64,000 nt of DNA, taken from NCBI GenBank assembly GCA_027022365.1, contig JALVYU010000026.1, forward strand, positions 160,001 through 224,000, read 5' to 3'. Made by a program: the position numbers and the translations under genes. Shown piece after piece: positions 40,241 to 44,663 of this stretch. Source of the DNA: Desulfurococcales archaeon (GTDB lineage: Archaea; Thermoproteota; Thermoprotei_A; Sulfolobales; Desulfurococcaceae). Positions within the stretch are counted from its first letter, which is position 1, and each line of letters starts with the position of its first letter. A model generated the notes under the pieces. That model did no database searches, was not told the DNA's origin, and was given only the letters and a program-made list of their open reading frames with translations.

Positions 40241-40495
40241 CAATTATAGAACACATCAACCCCAACATGATATATTACCAGCATGATCCGAGTTATCACC
40301 GATACCATTGATACATGATTTTATATAGCCTGAACATGCCAGTAAAACAGCCATCTTATAAAAATCGCAATAAATATGAGCCACAAATACACATAGCATC
40401 AGCACATCTCGTTAATTTAATTCCCAGATAACACACCTATACAACTTATTAGAAGAAATGGTGGCGGGGCCCCCACAATGGTAGCGGGGGGTGGA

Positions 40496-41207
40496 TTCTC
40501 CCGGGGCGGCTGTCCGCAGAGTCTTATTCGCTATATGTAATGAGTATTATTGACCCTTTTAAAACTTACTACAAATCTTAGTCAAAGCCCTTTTCTCAGC
40601 TTGATGATGAATATCCATGATGTTATATAGATTGCATACGTTATCTTTTCTACTAATAACTAATCTATAAAATCCCCAGGTCTCGCCATAATTATATCTT
40701 AGAATCTATGCTGATTTTCCTAAGCATTTTGAATATCTAACACTCCGTAATAGTTCACAGAATTGATGATAACTCTATGTTTTTGTTTATCAATATGTCC
40801 TTCATCTATAAATGCTGAGATCCAATTAATGAGTATATTGGGACTTTTTCTTATGAATGCCTGTGCTCTCCATAATTTTTGAATTATTTGCACCTAAACG
40901 TCTAAGTGTGTAGTAAAGATATCTTGATTTAACTCTTGCTATATAGACGTGTTTTTGGATGAATATACAATAGTCGGGCTTATCTTCAAAACATCATATA
41001 TGTCTCTGGCAAATGAACTAATTAGTTCAATTGATTTATTAATATATTCTATAATGTAACGTTTTCCTCTATCTCCTTTCTCGACATATATATGTCCATC
41101 TCCGCAAATATGTGCATGAATCCTTGCAAAATAAGGATTATCCATTAAGGACATGTTATTCCCGTTTTAGATAGAATAGGAGAATATAAAGCGGACAGCC
41201 GCCCCGT
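40496..41207 (-). mobile_element. 712-nt intervening sequence at tRNA position 59/60 carrying a decayed LAGLIDADG gene
   Basis: Perfect 16-bp terminal complementarity 40502-40517/41191-41206; central helix TTCA/GGAG with 3-nt bulges. Confidence 0.82.
40559..41154 (-). pseudogene. Frameshifted two-motif LAGLIDADG homing endonuclease
   Basis: IHAHICGDG in the first frame, WISAFIDEGHI after a frameshift near 40950, YRLVISRKDNV tail after further breaks. Confidence 0.75.
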
Positions 41208-41229
41208 TTTGAACCACCGACCTCGGGGT

Positions 41230-41250
41230 GTCCCTGAGGCGGCAGCCTCT
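41230..41250 (-). other. 21-nt canonical tRNA intron at 37/38
   Basis: A GAGGC TGCC GCCTC AGGG AC hairpin with relaxed BHB. Confidence 0.88.
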
Positions 41251-41307
41251 TATGAGCTTCGCGGGGCGGGGCTACCGTCCCTGCTACTACCTTTATTATT
41301 GGGGGTC

Positions 41308-41481
41308 TTATAAAGTTTTATTCTTAGGTGTTATGAGTAAGCCTTTTCTTTTATTGTTAATATAAATTTCGACACTAAGTTCTATCCCTTCTTTCCAGCC
41401 TAAGGCTTCAACTAATTGTTTTGGTAGTGTTATTTCATAGGTGTAATATTTTTGTTTACCTTTCCTCTTTCTAAGTTTCAT
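41308..41481 (-). CDS. AbrB/MazE/SpoVT-family DNA-binding protein (57 aa, not in ORF track)
   Basis: MKLRKRKGKQKYYTYEITLPKQLVEALGWKEGIELSVEIYINNKRKGLLITPKNKTL; GGTGA RBS upstream. Confidence 0.8.
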   Translation of the reverse strand: MKLRKRKGKQKYYTYEITLPKQLVEALGWKEGIELSVEIYINNKRKGLLITPKNKTL

Positions 41482-41564
41482 TATTTCACCAAGAAATACT
41501 ATATAATCGTAGATAATAAATTTATATAGGAATTCTTTACAGAATTCCTAACAGAGGTGAAGAA

Positions 41565-42644
41565 ATGAAGCAGTCTATGGGTAATATTATCGCAAATTTG
41601 CTGGAAAATTATGGATCAAACTATCTTAATAAATGGAAATCAAGAGAACATTTACTGGGTAGAAGAAAGTTTTTGGTATATAATGTCGATGAACAAATAA
41701 AGTCAGAAATTCTATTTCTTCTTTATAAAGAACTTCACAACATAAAAACAACTACCTTTAAAGAAGTAAAGTTCTTGAGTAAGTGCTTAGTAATTAGGTC
41801 AACGCATGAGGCCCCGCTATGGTATAGATTAGGCTTAGCATTAAGCGATGGCTCTGTCCTAGGTAAAAGTAATATAATATTCTCTACATCAAAACCACAC
41901 ACAATAGATGCCGTGATGTATGGATTTAGTTATATAAAGATCTACGTAGCTAGATACATGCTAAGTATAAAAACTAACAAGATAATACCTGTTATTAACA
42001 TCGTAGTGAAGGATCCGGATACTGCATTACTTCTAAGACGTATTAAAGAAAACAAACTAGATACGGATCAATTTATAGATGCACTAGTTAATGATAGAAT
42101 GGCGTTGGCACAATTCCTAGCTGGGATAATAGATGGTGATGGAAGTATAGATTGTGATAATATAAGAATATGCATTGATAAACGTGATCCTCTATACACG
42201 ATTTTACAAAAAATCTTTAGAAATAATTTGGTTTATGATGAAAAACGATATATGTTAAGGATAAAAACACGAGCCGTTAGGGAACTAAGCATTTTAGAAG
42301 AACTAATAAATAACATAGTCTCGGAACATAAGAAAACTATGATTAAAAGAATCCTGAGAAAAAGAAAAAGATTCGTTCTAAACAACATCACATTAACAAA
42401 TTATAAAATTAAAGAAATCCTAGACAAACTTGATAATGATGATCTAAAAACACTTACCTTATTTAAATTTAGAAAAAAGCAAAAATATACCTATGCATAC
42501 ATCTCCTTTAACAAAAAGAATAAAAACTATATATTCAGCTTAATTAACAAGCTACTCTATAAAATAGAATCCGTACTTTTCTTAAACCTCCTCGATTCTG
42601 TTAAGGAAGGTAACAGAGAATATGTAATTTATAACAAAGAATAG
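41565..42644 (+). CDS. Two-motif LAGLIDADG homing endonuclease-like protein
   Basis: LGLALSDGS and LAGIIDGDGS motifs; GAGGTGA RBS; TTTATATA at 41521; Lys-rich, low GC. Confidence 0.82.
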   Translation: MKQSMGNIIANLLENYGSNYLNKWKSREHLLGRRKFLVYNVDEQIKSEILFLLYKELHNIKTTTFKEVKFLSKCLVIRSTHEAPLWYRLGLALSDGSVLGKSNIIFSTSKPHTIDAVMYGFSYIKIYVARYMLSIKTNKIIPVINIVVKDPDTALLLRRIKENKLDTDQFIDALVNDRMALAQFLAGIIDGDGSIDCDNIRICIDKRDPLYTILQKIFRNNLVYDEKRYMLRIKTRAVRELSILEELINNIVSEHKKTMIKRILRKRKRFVLNNITLTNYKIKEILDKLDNDDLKTLTLFKFRKKQKYTYAYISFNKKNKNYIFSLINKLLYKIESVLFLNLLDSVKEGNREYVIYNKE

Positions 42645-42855
42645 TAGAACTTATCAAAACACTTAGAATATATATTGAGATGGGGAAGGGACGGTAGCCC
42701 CTGCACCTCCCGCGGGCTACCTGGCTGCCCTACCCCGCTGTTTTGCCCCGCCGTATTGTTTGTGGTGTTTTTCGGTGGTTATAAGGTTTTCTGGGCTTTT
42801 CTTCTTGTTGTGTTGTTTCTTTCTAGGAGGAGGGAGAGGGGAGGGGAAAAAGGAG

Positions 42856-43602
42856 TTATTTTAGCTGGTTTAGCGGTGTGTATGTTTTTGCCGGTATGTA
42901 TGGTAGGATGTGGCGGGTTGTTTTTGGGCTGTATACTTTTCCTTGCCTAGCTATTTCTATTACTTCTTGTTTTGTCGGTGGTTTTCTCAGAAACAGGTAG
43001 TCGATCTCTCCTTTTTCGAGGTCTTGTATTGCTTCTTCGCGTAAGCCGTAATAGGCGAGCTTTATTTTTCCCTCGACGTTAAGCTTGTTTAGGATCTTTG
43101 ATACTTTCTTTTGTTCTTCTACGCCTCCCTTTATGATCCATGCTCTACCGTCTCGAGACAATATTATGAAGGCTATACCTCCCTGCTCCAATAGTTTTAT
43201 CGCTTGCTCCGCATCGAGCTTGGACTCGTTTATATCTAGTTCTTTAGACGCTTCTCGCAGGAAGTCATCGATACTACCTATAATAGCGGGATACCATGTC
43301 TCGAGCCTGATACTATCGTCAAAGTAATCTACGACGATCGCTGGTGCTTTGCGATACCCCAGCTCTTTTAGAGCAGCCCAACGATGATGTCCATCAACAA
43401 TCAAGTACTTATCAGTCCCCGGTATAGGGGCAACTATGATGGGCATATCCACAGCGCCCAAGTCCATGATCATCTTCTTTACATCCTCAAGGCGCTTAGT
43501 AACAATCTCCTCGTGCGGCACCATATTATCAACATCGATCAGAACTGGCTCAACCCGCTTAACCGGTATATTTAGCTTCGGCAGCTTTATGATCACTGAC
43601 AC
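42856..43602 (-). CDS. serK: Free serine kinase SerK (ParB/Srx fold)
   Basis: PHEE, DGHHRWAAL, TWYP, SPKTTRH; clustered with a SerA-like gene and an aminotransferase. Confidence 0.78.
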   Translation of the reverse strand: MSVIIKLPKLNIPVKRVEPVLIDVDNMVPHEEIVTKRLEDVKKMIMDLGAVDMPIIVAPIPGTDKYLIVDGHHRWAALKELGYRKAPAIVVDYFDDSIRLETWYPAIIGSIDDFLREASKELDINESKLDAEQAIKLLEQGGIAFIILSRDGRAWIIKGGVEEQKKVSKILNKLNVEGKIKLAYYGLREEAIQDLEKGEIDYLFLRKPPTKQEVIEIARQGKVYSPKTTRHILPYIPAKTYTPLNQLK

Positions 43603-43736: not shown

Positions 43737-44663
43737 TTAGTTAGACTTAAAGAATTCAATGATTTTCTCTGCGATCTGGACGCCAGCCCTCTCCTGGGCT
43801 TCGGTAGTCGTCGAGCCTATGTGTGGTGTTAGCACAACATTATCGAACTTGGTCAGCGGATGATCCTTGGGTAGAGGCTCCTCCTCATACACGTCAAGCC
43901 CCGCACCAGCAATCCAACCGTTAGATAATGCCTTGACAAGGGCTTCGGTGTCGACGACGCCGCCTCTTGCGGTGTTTATCAGTATTGCTGAGGGCTTCAT
44001 AAGCTTTAACCGTTCTTCGTTAATCATATGTCTCGTTGAAGGCAGTAAGGGCACGTGCAGGCTGACTATATCAGCTTCCCTCAAAACATCGTCAAGCTCT
44101 CTATACTCGGCATTAAGTTCTCTTTCAACATCTTCTATCTTCCCACGAGCATCATAGTAGATTATCTTCATACCGAAACCATAATAGGCTATACGGGCTA
44201 CCTCCCTGCCAATCCTGCCCATACCGATAATGCCGAGGGTTTTTCCCCTTAGCTCAAACCCCATGCACTGCTTCTTGGCCCAAACACCCTCACGCATCTT
44301 ACGATCGGCGAAGGCGATCTTACGTGCAACAGCAAGCATTAATCCAATAGCTAGCTCGGCAACACTCCTTGAAGGAGCACCGGGAGTATTCAGTACTGTG
44401 ATCCCTTTCTCCTTGGCCGCCTCAAGATCGATGTTATCAATGCCGACGCCAGCCCTGCCAATAACCCTTAGCTTCTCCGCGGCCTCGATAACTCTCCTAG
44501 TAACCCTCGGCTTAGACCTCACAATGATAGCGTCGGCGTCCTTTATCAGCTCGATGAGCTCGTCCTCGGAAGGATACTCTTTAACAATGACTTCGAAGCC
44601 AGCGCTTCGGAGCTTCTCGATCGCTTTGGGATGAAGGGGTGCGGCAACCAGCACCTTTACCAT
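43737..44663 (-). CDS. serA: D-3-phosphoglycerate/D-2-hydroxyacid dehydrogenase
   Basis: RAGVGIDNID, GMGRIG, NTARG, LDVYEEEP, TPHIG. Confidence 0.85.
   Translation of the reverse strand: MVKVLVAAPLHPKAIEKLRSAGFEVIVKEYPSEDELIELIKDADAIIVRSKPRVTRRVIEAAEKLRVIGRAGVGIDNIDLEAAKEKGITVLNTPGAPSRSVAELAIGLMLAVARKIAFADRKMREGVWAKKQCMGFELRGKTLGIIGMGRIGREVARIAYYGFGMKIIYYDARGKIEDVERELNAEYRELDDVLREADIVSLHVPLLPSTRHMINEERLKLMKPSAILINTARGGVVDTEALVKALSNGWIAGAGLDVYEEEPLPKDHPLTKFDNVVLTPHIGSTTTEAQERAGVQIAEKIIEFFKSN

Follow-up and report, generated by a model that had tools for sequence, protein, structure and literature searches.

The origin of split tRNA genes has been debated since 2005, with these genes regarded either as relics of an RNA world or as late products of genome damage. 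The closest described system is tRNA-Asp of A. pernix, in which the two halves are adjacent and an internal promoter is present; northern blots show the halves together with a faint read-through product (PMC3218864), and the authors regard the gene as an intermediate between an intron-bearing and a split gene. The same source (table 1) lists tRNA-Lys(CUU) of Staphylothermus, split at 30/31, and the permuted initiator tRNA (iMet) of Thermofilum pendens with its junction at 59/60. For the Desulfurococcales cases, the splitting agent was left unknown by Chan et al. (2011). According to the sections of PMC4033280 and PMC10714607 that treat it, the tri-split tRNA-Gly of Caldivirga maquilingensis (Fujishima et al. 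2009) is put together from three separate transcripts by splicing at BHB motifs, and its leaders resemble introns of relatives. For tRNA-Thr of Caldiarchaeum subterraneum, it was proposed that a mobile element in the tRNA gene gave rise to both intron gain and splitting (Sugahara et al. 2012, PMC3293823). In crenarchaeal rRNA genes, as outlined in parts of PMC4496867, BHB-bounded introns carry one- or two-motif LAGLIDADG genes.

Here, we followed up an interrupted initiator tRNA gene in a window of 64,000 nt, the whole stretch of DNA analysed, from a Desulfurococcales archaeon. It is probably the working initiator tRNA gene of this genome and has the layout of a split gene with collinear pieces. 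As in A. pernix tRNA-Asp, the pieces are collinear on one strand, with an internal BRE/TATA element, a short GC-rich leader and a GC stem next to the BHB motif (14 bp in A. pernix). The A. pernix precedent implies that a separate strand or locus is not required for a split tRNA. Its gene encodes an elongator tRNA in two pieces, is divided at 37/38 by a gene-free spacer of 121 nt and is proven by northern blot, whereas here an initiator tRNA in up to three pieces, predicted from sequence, is divided at 30/31 and 59/60 by spacers of 1451 and 712 nt with endonuclease genes. The Staphylothermus and Thermofilum cases share these two junctions but differ in the tRNA or its topology, and no cargo genes were described for them. 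With the Caldivirga gene, the proposed arrangement has three transcripts and BHB joints in common; in the sections cited above, the Caldivirga gene has scattered pieces that isoacceptors have in common, whereas ours are collinear with selfish cargo between them, and a closer match to that gene is found in a relative (G024, see below). The element described for C. subterraneum carries a recombinase gene and leaves part of the tRNA in duplicate, in contrast to endonuclease genes placed exactly at the splice positions without a duplicate. Like the rRNA introns, in the outline given by PMC4496867, the insertions are BHB-bounded and lie in a stable-RNA gene, but the host is a tRNA, and insertion 1 carries its endonuclease gene in antisense orientation behind a candidate promoter of its own, together with an outward-facing one for the downstream exon. 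In the literature that was searched, we did not find endonuclease-bearing BHB insertions in archaeal tRNA genes described.

Anatomy of the interrupted initiator tRNA gene

The minus strand carries an initiator tRNA-Met in four exons with breaks at 30/31, 37/38 and 59/60 (Table 1). Joined by their coordinates, the exons gave a 77-nt RNA with a perfect cloverleaf as minimum-energy fold (−36.1 kcal/mol), which ARAGORN identified as tRNA-Met(CAT) and which has A1:U72 and G29-31:C39-41. Thereby, the four exons of the original prediction were confirmed; the GC-rich complementary arms that it had named proved real (pairs of 14–15 bp for insertion 1 and 16 bp for insertion 3), and the T-rich tract claimed after the middle piece is present. 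Exon 1 and the 3′ end occur once each in the genome. The Rfam tRNA model detected 45 other tRNAs, and none of the CAT-bearing candidates, the only ones inspected, starts with A1; the four-exon gene is the only initiator tRNA gene found in the genome. Contigs of four DNA runs from vent metagenomes contain the locus as well as shorter variants, and those of runs X3, X4 and X13 cover most of it in overlapping pieces, none of which spans all. Among sequencing runs catalogued as RNA, none was found to contain the stretch 40400-42850.

Table 1 Features of the initiator tRNA locus and its insertions (positions in the window)
Feature	Position	Strand	Remarks
P1, A-rich BRE + TATA word CAGAAAACCTTATAAC	42778..42793	-	candidate promoter of the 5′ piece, by position and conservation
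Leader strand GGCGGGGC	42745..42752	-	pairs with trailer 40463-40470 (three-strand fold)
Exon 1	42709..42739	-	tRNA positions 1-30, with 17a; identical word in many relatives
Insertion 1 at 30/31	41258..42708	-	1451 nt; 5′ arm 42701-42688, 3′ arm 41281-41268
359-aa double-motif LAGLIDADG homing-endonuclease-like ORF	41565..42644	+	antisense to the tRNA
Promoter-like matches	41494..41530	+	11.9 and 10.0 bits; within the 83-nt divergent spacer ahead of the endonuclease ORF
57-aa AbrB/MazE-fold ORF	41308..41481	-	tRNA-sense; Pfam PF04014 28.9 bits, cut-off 24.7; stop inside P2
P2, BRE/TATA word TAAAACTTTATAAGAC	41305..41320	-	13.5 bits; core AAAACTTTATAAG at 41319-41307
Exon 2	41251..41257	-	positions 31-37, contains CAT anticodon
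Intron 2	41230..41250	-	21 nt; canonical 37/38 position; hairpin GAGGC/GCCTC
Exon 3	41208..41229	-	positions 38-59
Insertion 3 at 59/60	40496..41207	-	712 nt; 5′ arm 41206-41191, 3′ arm 40517-40502
Pyrimidine/T-rich tract TTTATATTCTCC...	41170..41190	-	after the middle piece; like 3′ flanks of ordinary tRNA genes in the genome
Decayed small LAGLIDADG ORF	40582..41154	-	sense-oriented, broken over three frames; intact (192 aa) in congener G005
P3, weak BRE/TATA word GTAAGTTTTAAAAGGG	40554..40569	-	9.0 bits; core TTTTAAAA at 40564-40557
Exon 4	40479..40495	-	positions 60-76, CCA encoded
Trailer GCCCCGCC, then TTTCTTCT	40451..40470	-	40470-40463 and 40458-40451; TTTCTTCT likely terminator

On the raw window, ARAGORN did not call the interrupted gene, and a search of the window with Rfam at a permissive threshold gave three matches, none of them a tRNA and all at chance level (E ≥ 0.92). 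Standard tRNA finders thus miss the initiator tRNA of such genomes. An ARAGORN call of tRNA-Arg with an intron of 2786 nt is spurious, an ordinary tRNA-Arg being called at the same start, and C/D-box RNA was rejected as an explanation of the insertions because only the chance-level Rfam matches were found.

At 59/60, the BHB motif comes close to the canonical form, and its outer helix is the T stem. In the minimum-energy fold, the motif at 30/31 is a relaxed BHB in which a 6-bp helix lies between a 4-nt bulge and a 1 × 2 loop, instead of the 3-4-3 form. When the three pieces were folded together, the structure contained both arms as well as the acceptor and T stems and a leader-trailer helix (−161.8 kcal/mol versus −100.1 kcal/mol for the three strands alone); the leader word is also present upstream of iMet in most relatives. 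The genome encodes RtcB and two EndA-family genes.

The 359-aa ORF of insertion 1 is a predicted LAGLIDADG homing endonuclease, based on its two motifs, their acidic residues and a family profile match. By itself, it scored 20.7 bits against Pfam LAGLIDADG_3, 1.8 bits under the cut-off of 22.5, and phmmer against PDB sequences gave only a chance match (E 0.22). Six of the seven members of the profile built from its relatives matched LAGLIDADG_3, the columns G90, L91, D95 and G96 as well as G187, G191, D192 and G193 are invariant in all seven, and the profile found the I-DmoI chimera 1mow (E 2.5e-4), I-DmoI and I-PorI being LAGLIDADG endonucleases of crenarchaeal rRNA introns.

Candidate promoters and transcription of the pieces

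We propose that a first RNA would start at about 42754 downstream of P1, comprise leader, exon 1 and the 14–15-nt GC arm, and end in the pyrimidine/T-rich DNA beyond. A second RNA, starting at about 41285 downstream of P2, would consist of the complementary arm, exon 2, the 21-nt intron, exon 3 and the 16-nt arm. Exon 4 with its arm and trailer would be supplied either from the weak P3 (start at about 40534) or by read-through of insertion 3. After annealing via the arms, the acceptor and T stems and the leader-trailer helix, the splicing endonuclease would cut the BHB motifs at 30/31, 37/38 and 59/60, and RtcB would ligate the exons. The DNA between the pieces would be selfish cargo, namely two LAGLIDADG genes, one antisense and intact, the other sense and decayed. 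That exon 1 is made apart from exons 2 and 3 appears, on balance, the better reading of the sequence data.

All three promoter-like words of the original prediction were recovered, P2 and P3 exactly and P1 shifted by 1 nt (42793-42778 versus 42792-42777). They were scored with a matrix from 43 tRNA promoter sites of the same genome, which is overfitted: P1, regarded as surely real, obtained less than 9 bits, and window scores were poor in some relatives (e.g., −2.1 in L023 and 3.4 in L057). The P1 motif begins 53 nt upstream of the mature 5′ end, a usual distance in this genome, whose other 43 tRNA promoters fall between −40 and −58, and the P1 word is also found upstream of iMet in relatives. 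P2 is the best match in the whole of insertion 1 and exceeds chance, since only 87 sites with at least 13 bits occur in 3.34 million strand positions of the genome; its TATA centre is separated from the GC arm by 29–30 nt, which equals the spacing at P1. On the sense strand from 42900 to 40400, only three matches reach at least 9 bits, P2 and P3 among them. It had been cautioned that both internal TATA words coincide with stop codons of cargo ORFs. This holds for P2, in which the 57-aa ORF stops, but not for P3, as the endonuclease frame of insertion 3 stops at 40584-40582, 13 nt upstream. The middle piece could also be the 3′ tail of the mRNA of the AbrB-like ORF.

On its tRNA-sense strand, insertion 1 contains 12 runs of at least five T (8.3 per kb). 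Across 723 long ORFs, such runs occur at 0.31 per kb on the sense strand and 1.53 per kb on the antisense strand. The first run of insertion 1 lies 182 nt beyond exon 1, and no strong terminator was found directly after the 5′ arm, unlike in the relative G066; the pyrimidine richness after the 5′ arms was judged by reading sequence columns.

With 9.0 bits against a background of 0.35 matches per kb and strand, P3 is borderline with respect to chance, and the distance from its centre to the 3′ arm is 43 nt, in contrast to a spacing of 28–31 nt elsewhere. It ranks first or second among the matches of the homologous insertion in G005 and in G007. Transcription of exons 2, 3 and 4 as one RNA from P2, with exon 1 alone, insertion 3 spliced in cis and P3 being a chance AT-rich word, is a rather unlikely alternative that gains from the low score and the long spacing of P3. 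It also gains from insertion 3 itself, which may be read through because none of its 712 nt belongs to a sense-strand run of at least five T, and from the intact sense ORF in the congener, which needs transcription through the insertion or a promoter at its start. Moreover, no relative split at 59/60 onto opposite strands was found; G016, a candidate for such a split, was rejected, as its gene is complete in cis with the intron placed further 3′. Against a two-piece gene stand two unrelated 59/60 insertions with a TATA word 27–33 nt before the arm, L057 (187 nt, top match) and L094, and the tract after the arm of exon 3 with its likeness to tRNA gene flanks, although this tract could act either as terminator or as TATA element of the endonuclease ORF starting at 41154. 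Of the claim that each inner piece has its own promoter, the part on the exon 2 piece is well supported, based on score, spacing, conservation including ORF-less insertions, and three relatives with opposite-strand pieces, whereas P3 is weak. The three-piece gene originally suggested is thereby not established, given the weak P3, the lack of T runs in insertion 3 and the intact sense ORF of the congener; a full tri-split may be put forward only tentatively.

Insertions and split genes in relatives

When the sequences are aligned at the 3′ splice word, all nine related 30/31 insertions or split partners show an AAA(A)NTTTATAAR-like word at the same distance, with differing flanks. Among these are L004, L012 and L113, in which the upstream sequence is different and no such ORF is present (the insertion of L004 comprises 252 nt). 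For 17 insertions of more than 100 nt in relatives, the best match at 22–45 nt upstream of the 3′ arm ranks first in the whole insertion in nine cases and 2–5 in eight. A window test over the insertions, which are not independent of each other, gave a combined p of 4.5e-7 versus 0.84 for the mirrored antisense control.

In three of the nine, the module with exon 2 lies on the strand opposite to exon 1, so trans-splicing is obligatory there and the exon 2 module has to be transcribed alone. One of these is a true tri-split: in G024, iMet is distributed over both strands, one of which has exon 1 and the other exon 2 (7 nt) as well as exons 3-4, and every piece is preceded by a TATA word of its own. 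In G066, exon 1 is followed by the arm and T6, and the partner is located 2.5 kb away on the other strand, while the pieces of L114 are convergent around an endonuclease gene.

These data also bear on an ordinary cis-spliced gene, with a precursor of about 2.3 kb transcribed from P1, three introns removed, and internal TATA words serving the cargo or nothing. Such a precursor is physically possible, since the minus strand contains all pieces in the right sequence within 2.3 kb, and long arms would equally help in folding a 1.4-kb intron; insertion 3, without T runs and with its sense ORF, fits as well. LAGLIDADG-bearing rRNA introns are spliced in cis, as stated in part of PMC4496867, and relatives with sense-oriented endonuclease genes at 37/38 have few T runs there and still possess the TATA word, so the word alone is no proof that the cis route is closed. 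Nevertheless, the 12 T runs and the antisense gene in insertion 1, the location of P2 at the exact promoter distance and its conservation where the ORF is absent, the homologous modules standing alone in three relatives and the flat mirrored control render this explanation improbable. That the interrupted copy is a dead relic, with the working initiator tRNA gene in unassembled DNA, is highly improbable: the assembly consists of 44 contigs and ARAGORN and Rfam miss the interrupted gene, but the genome is rated 99.97% complete, all four exons match intact genes of relatives such as L008, all arms pair perfectly, and the same layout is kept in G005 while the cargo ORFs decay differently.

A possible path from mobile intron to split gene

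The idea that a collinear split gene such as this one is an intermediate between an endonuclease-invaded intron and a split tRNA gene finds support in relatives, which form a graded series. In Desulfurococcales, iMet genes occur as intact genes, with short introns at 30/31, 37/38 and 59/60, with ORF-less insertions of 160–250 nt containing a promoter-like element, with kilobase insertions bearing live or decaying endonuclease genes, and finally with pieces inverted or moved apart (G024, G066 and L114). We infer that an essential gene can tolerate such an insertion owing to the outward-facing promoter of the cargo. With the downstream exon under a promoter of its own, inversion or transposition of the piece would be harmless, and splitting would follow from endonuclease invasion. 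Homing-endonuclease cassettes with an outward-facing promoter possibly convert intron-bearing into split tRNA genes. An essential single-copy tRNA gene with endonuclease genes exactly at splice positions, a promoter-like element directed towards the downstream exon and an inverted module in relatives thus offers a concrete and testable path from a mobile intron to a split gene.

A second case is present in the same genome, where tRNA-Phe contains an insertion of 666 nt at 30/31 with a T6 tract after the 5′ arm and a 13.7-bit match 28 nt before the 3′ arm. Among 1588 matrix matches of at least 8.5 bits, four are followed by a GC-rich 11-mer with its complement no more than 4 kb upstream; of these four, two are strong, namely P2 of iMet and the tRNA-Phe match.

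Anatomy and identity of the interrupted initiator tRNA gene

The initiator tRNA-Met (iMet) gene was located by reading of the sequence and by unique words at 42793-40451 on the minus strand, where its four exons are interrupted by two long insertions and a short intron. ARAGORN did not report it in the raw window, and Rfam gave three matches there, all with E >= 0.92 and none to a tRNA. Joined by coordinates, the exons form a 77-nt RNA with a perfect cloverleaf (-36.1 kcal/mol), which ARAGORN identifies as tRNA-Met(CAT). Because it bears A1:U72 and, at the base of its anticodon stem, three G:C pairs, which are initiator marks in archaeal tRNAs, it was assigned as the initiator. Two complementary GC-rich arms close each long insertion as a perfect helix (14-15 bp for insertion 1, 16 bp for insertion 3).

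Features of the iMet gene and related sites (window coordinates unless a contig is named)
Feature	Position	Strand	Remarks
Upstream ORFs	42856-43602 and 43737-44663	-	SerK-like serine kinase; dehydrogenase-like ORF
Leader of 8-bp flanking helix	42752-42745		GGCGGGGC; from three-strand fold
Exon 1	42739-42709	-	
Insertion 1	42708-41258	-	1451 nt, at 30/31
Endonuclease ORF	41565-42644	+	359 aa, in insertion 1
Further matrix match	41690-41675	tRNA-sense	9.2 bits
Divergent spacer	41482-41564		83 nt
P2	41320-41305	tRNA-sense	13.5 bits
Exon 2	41257-41251	-	
Intron	41250-41230	-	21 nt, at 37/38
Exon 3	41229-41208	-	
Insertion 3	41207-40496	-	712 nt, at 59/60
P3	40569-40554	tRNA-sense	9.0 bits
Exon 4	40495-40479	-	CCA encoded
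Trailer of 8-bp flanking helix	40470-40463		GCCCCGCC; from three-strand fold
Elongator tRNA-Met	C26:415223		CAT-bearing candidate, without A1
tRNA-Met on C1			Foreign-looking CAT-bearing candidate, without A1
Gene starting GGGCCC	C26:413019		CAT-bearing candidate, without A1
tRNA-Phe(GAA)	C26:325169-324429	-	Outside the window

The genome has 45 other tRNAs (Rfam tRNA model), of which the CAT-bearing ones were inspected as initiator candidates. Since exon 1 and the 3′ end of iMet each occur once in the 1.74-Mb genome and none of the inspected CAT-bearing tRNAs starts with A1, no initiator tRNA gene other than the interrupted one was found in the assembly, whose completeness is rated at 99.97%. 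The candidate on contig C1 (5354 nt, 62.5% GC) has weak stems unlike the genome's other tRNAs, and this contig is probably foreign to the bin. The remaining 44 of the 45 matches are located on contigs C26, C7 and C11 (about 980 kb), and none on C31, C30, C38 and C3, which total about 690 kb, contain no N and are slightly higher in GC.

The endonuclease ORF in insertion 1 is antisense to the tRNA and scores 20.7 bits against Pfam LAGLIDADG_3, slightly below the cut-off of 22.5. In a profile of this ORF and six relatives both LAGLIDADG motifs are invariant; the profile matches the I-DmoI chimera 1mow (E 2.5e-4), and six of the seven members match LAGLIDADG_3. Its closest relatives (33-98% identity; loci L109-L113) all lie antisense in the 30/31 site of iMet (5/5). 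Insertion 1 also contains a sense-oriented 57-aa ORF with AbrB/MazE fold (PF04014, 28.9 bits), and in the divergent spacer between both ORFs TATA words occur on both strands, together with an inverted repeat (AGGAATTCT ... AGAATTCCT). Regulation of the endonuclease gene by the small AbrB-fold protein is possible. In insertion 3, a small LAGLIDADG gene runs in the sense direction; it is disrupted in the window, spread over three frames, and intact (192 aa) in the congener G005. Directly upstream of iMet, the SerK-like kinase includes a ParB-N domain (PF18231, E 8.5e-34); the neighbourhood is conserved, since a similar ORF precedes iMet in three relatives (L012, L014, L020).

Promoter-like words and termination signals

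Promoter-like words had been noted before exon 1 (P1) and before the arms leading into exon 2 (P2) and exon 4 (P3), and all three were recovered in place, within 1 nt. For scoring, a 16-column matrix was derived from the sequences upstream of 43 of the genome's tRNA genes, whose promoter motifs begin 40-58 nt upstream of the mature 5′ end and have as consensus an A-rich BRE, a TTTATAA-like word and then CC. Only three sites reach 9 bits on the tRNA-sense strand between 42900 and 40400. With 87 sites genome-wide reaching 13 bits versus 1172 reaching 9 bits (3.34 million strand positions), P2 is a top-class match and P3 a marginal one. The score of P1 stays below 9 bits, since one column of the small matrix does not allow a C; as P1 lies at the normal tRNA-promoter place and recurs upstream of iMet in relatives, the matrix is overfitted and misses real sites. 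The proposal of a promoter for each piece is supported for P2 by score and for P1 by position and recurrence; P3 is a weak candidate.

From the TATA centre, the following leader helix (P1, 42782 to 42752) or arm (P2, 41311 to 41281) is 30 nt away in both cases. Given an archaeal TATA-to-start distance of usually about 26 nt, transcription is predicted to start near 42754, 41285 and 40534, each following a T.

Oligo-T plays a role in archaeal transcription termination. In 723 long ORFs of the genome, runs of at least five T occur at 0.31 per kb in sense and 1.53 per kb in antisense direction, and their rarity in sense fits this role. On the tRNA-sense strand, insertion 1 has 12 such runs in 1451 nt, the first at 42526, versus two on the other strand; insertion 3 has none on its sense strand. 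On a purely cis route, which we consider unlikely, a polymerase from P1 would meet all 12 T runs and the opposing endonuclease gene. Pyrimidine-rich tracts directly follow both 5′ arms and by eye resemble ordinary tRNA 3′ flanks of the genome. The one after the arm of exon 3 agrees with the T-rich tract noticed behind the middle piece; it may just as well serve as TATA for the endonuclease ORF starting at 41154.

The anatomy of iMet and its promoter-like motifs are confirmed. The original suggestion of a possible collinear tri-split tRNA is partly supported: the best reading is a collinear split gene, with exon 1 probably made apart from exons 2-3, while the full tri-split, with exon 4 as a third transcript, is a tentative extension.

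The same design was found in tRNA-Phe(GAA), which is interrupted at 30/31 by 666 nt. This insertion has 12-bp arms, the 5′ one followed by a T6 tract, and contains a decayed LAGLIDADG ORF in sense orientation; a promoter-like match of 13.7 bits lies 28 nt before the 3′ arm. Genome-wide, only 4 of 1588 matrix matches of at least 8.5 bits are followed by a GC-rich 11-mer with its complement within 4 kb upstream; the two strong ones are the tRNA-Phe word and P2. The arm of P3 fell just beyond the range covered by this search.

Insertions and split genes in relatives

The exon-1 word (up to three mismatches) is present in 33 of the 41 nearest genomes and, within a sample of 201 genomes of the order, in 150; named matches are MAGs labelled Desulfurococcales, Desulfurococcaceae, Thermodiscus and Thermoprotei. 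Besides the window, 89 iMet places were examined, drawn from 30 first loci, four extensions and 60 chosen across families from about 150, after four first-round loci replaced by extensions and the window's own copy had been left out. There is no insertion in 44, short introns only (up to 100 nt) in 19, and at least one insertion above 100 nt in 16 (17 insertions). The remaining ten comprise six running off contig ends and the genomes G016, G024, G066 and G044. G016, considered as a split gene, is complete in cis. G044 agrees with G066 in exon 1, arm and T-rich tract; no further iMet pieces were found within 4 kb, and a search with its arm (up to one mismatch) retrieved only the arm itself. Among 79 classed places, introns occur at 37/38 in 27, in the 59/60 region in 19 and at 30/31 in 18, the last count leaning on the required word CGCGAA before exon 2. 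Metagenome contigs from runs X3 and X4 (window 40505-41203) show the 59/60 arms no more than 13-18 other letters apart, and another joins exon 1 directly to the anticodon word; therefore, short and empty forms of the insertion sites exist in the same kind of habitat.

For each of the 17 long insertions, the best matrix match centred 22-45 nt before the 3′ arm was determined. It is the top match of the whole insertion in nine (L003, L004, L012, L015, both of L031, L057, L080, L093) and ranks 2-5 in the other eight, at 23-33 nt from the arm, except for 43 nt in insertions of the same family as insertion 3 of the window. Distant families give modest scores (e.g. L023 -2.1, L057 3.4), as is to be expected of a matrix derived from another genome. 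In a comparison with every window of equal size within the respective insertion, the matches give a combined p of 4.5e-7, a value that overstates the significance because the insertions share ancestry; the mirrored control (antisense strand, before the 5′ arm) gave p = 0.84. We regard as more telling the alignment of nine 30/31 modules (window, G005, L012, L004, L112, L113, L114, G066, G024) anchored on the 3′ splice word, in which an AAA(A)NTTTATAAR-like word stands at about the same distance in all nine, somewhat further upstream in L112, with differing flanks. As the sequence upstream of the TATA word differs in L004, L012 and L113 and the L004 insertion is only 252 nt long, the P2-type word is more than the stop codon of the AbrB-like ORF. 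At L080 (G102:C58), the 37/38 site holds an insertion of 1616 nt whose ORF, antisense and 463 aa long, is ATPase-like and takes the place of an endonuclease gene; the top match of this insertion is still 31 nt before the 3′ arm.

In G024 (same family, another genus, 94% complete; L043 = G024:C4:193124-193370, and L038), exon 1 and its arm lie on one strand. The opposite strand has a TATA word and, 27 nt on, the complementary arm; the splice word, exon 2 (7 nt) and a second arm come next, and about 100 nt beyond follow another TATA word, the matching arm and exons 3-4. Judged by this arrangement, G024 has a true tri-split initiator tRNA whose middle transcript contains only seven exon nucleotides; no published report of it was found. 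In G066 (another family; L108 = G066:C7:36595, and L076), exon 1, arm and TATTTTTTC are on one strand, and 2.5 kb away a divergent partner on the other strand carries the remainder of the gene, which ends in the same trailer, and an arm with a TATA word 29-30 nt before it; a GGGCTACCG core is common to its arms and those of the window. In L114, the 5′ and 3′ pieces on opposite strands converge on an endonuclease gene, and a TATA word precedes the arm by about 28 nt. With pieces on opposite strands, trans-splicing is obligatory in all three. The window's succession of promoter word, arm and exon 2 is homologous to these modules, which are necessarily transcribed alone.

Predicted assembly and splicing, and known split tRNAs

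The three-strand fold of the predicted pieces reaches -161.8 kcal/mol versus -100.1 for the three alone; in it both arms pair, and the acceptor stem, the T stem and the 8-bp leader-trailer helix are present. The leader word is also found upstream of uninterrupted iMet genes in most relatives (L018, L022, L027, others); the helix may serve end processing or hold the pieces together. The 59/60 junction is a near-canonical BHB with the T stem as outer helix, three of four central pairs and the bulges AAA and AAU. At 30/31 the BHB is relaxed, with 6 bp drawn between a 4-nt bulge and a 1x2 loop, or 3-4-3 on the 5′ side in a slipped register; in relatives, these same splice words flank short introns, whose removal must function there. 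The genome encodes RtcB and two EndA-family proteins (104.5 and 40.6 bits), which fit the heterotetrameric type, described in published abstracts as having broad specificity.

In A. pernix, the two halves of tRNA-Asp lie side by side and there is an internal promoter, as shown by northern blot (PMC3218864, section 5). The iMet gene would be of the same kind, with collinear adjacent pieces and a predicted internal promoter. Tri-split tRNAs are described from Caldivirga in passages of PMC4033280 and PMC10714607. The longest archaeal tRNA intron recorded in 2011 was 129 nt (main text of PMC3218864), and the literature searched, available in part, did not describe any BHB insertion with an endonuclease gene in an archaeal tRNA gene. 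New are a probable collinear split gene for an initiator tRNA, kilobase spacers with LAGLIDADG genes exactly at splice positions, a predicted outward promoter in an insertion, and a series of stages within one order, including three unreported split iMet genes.
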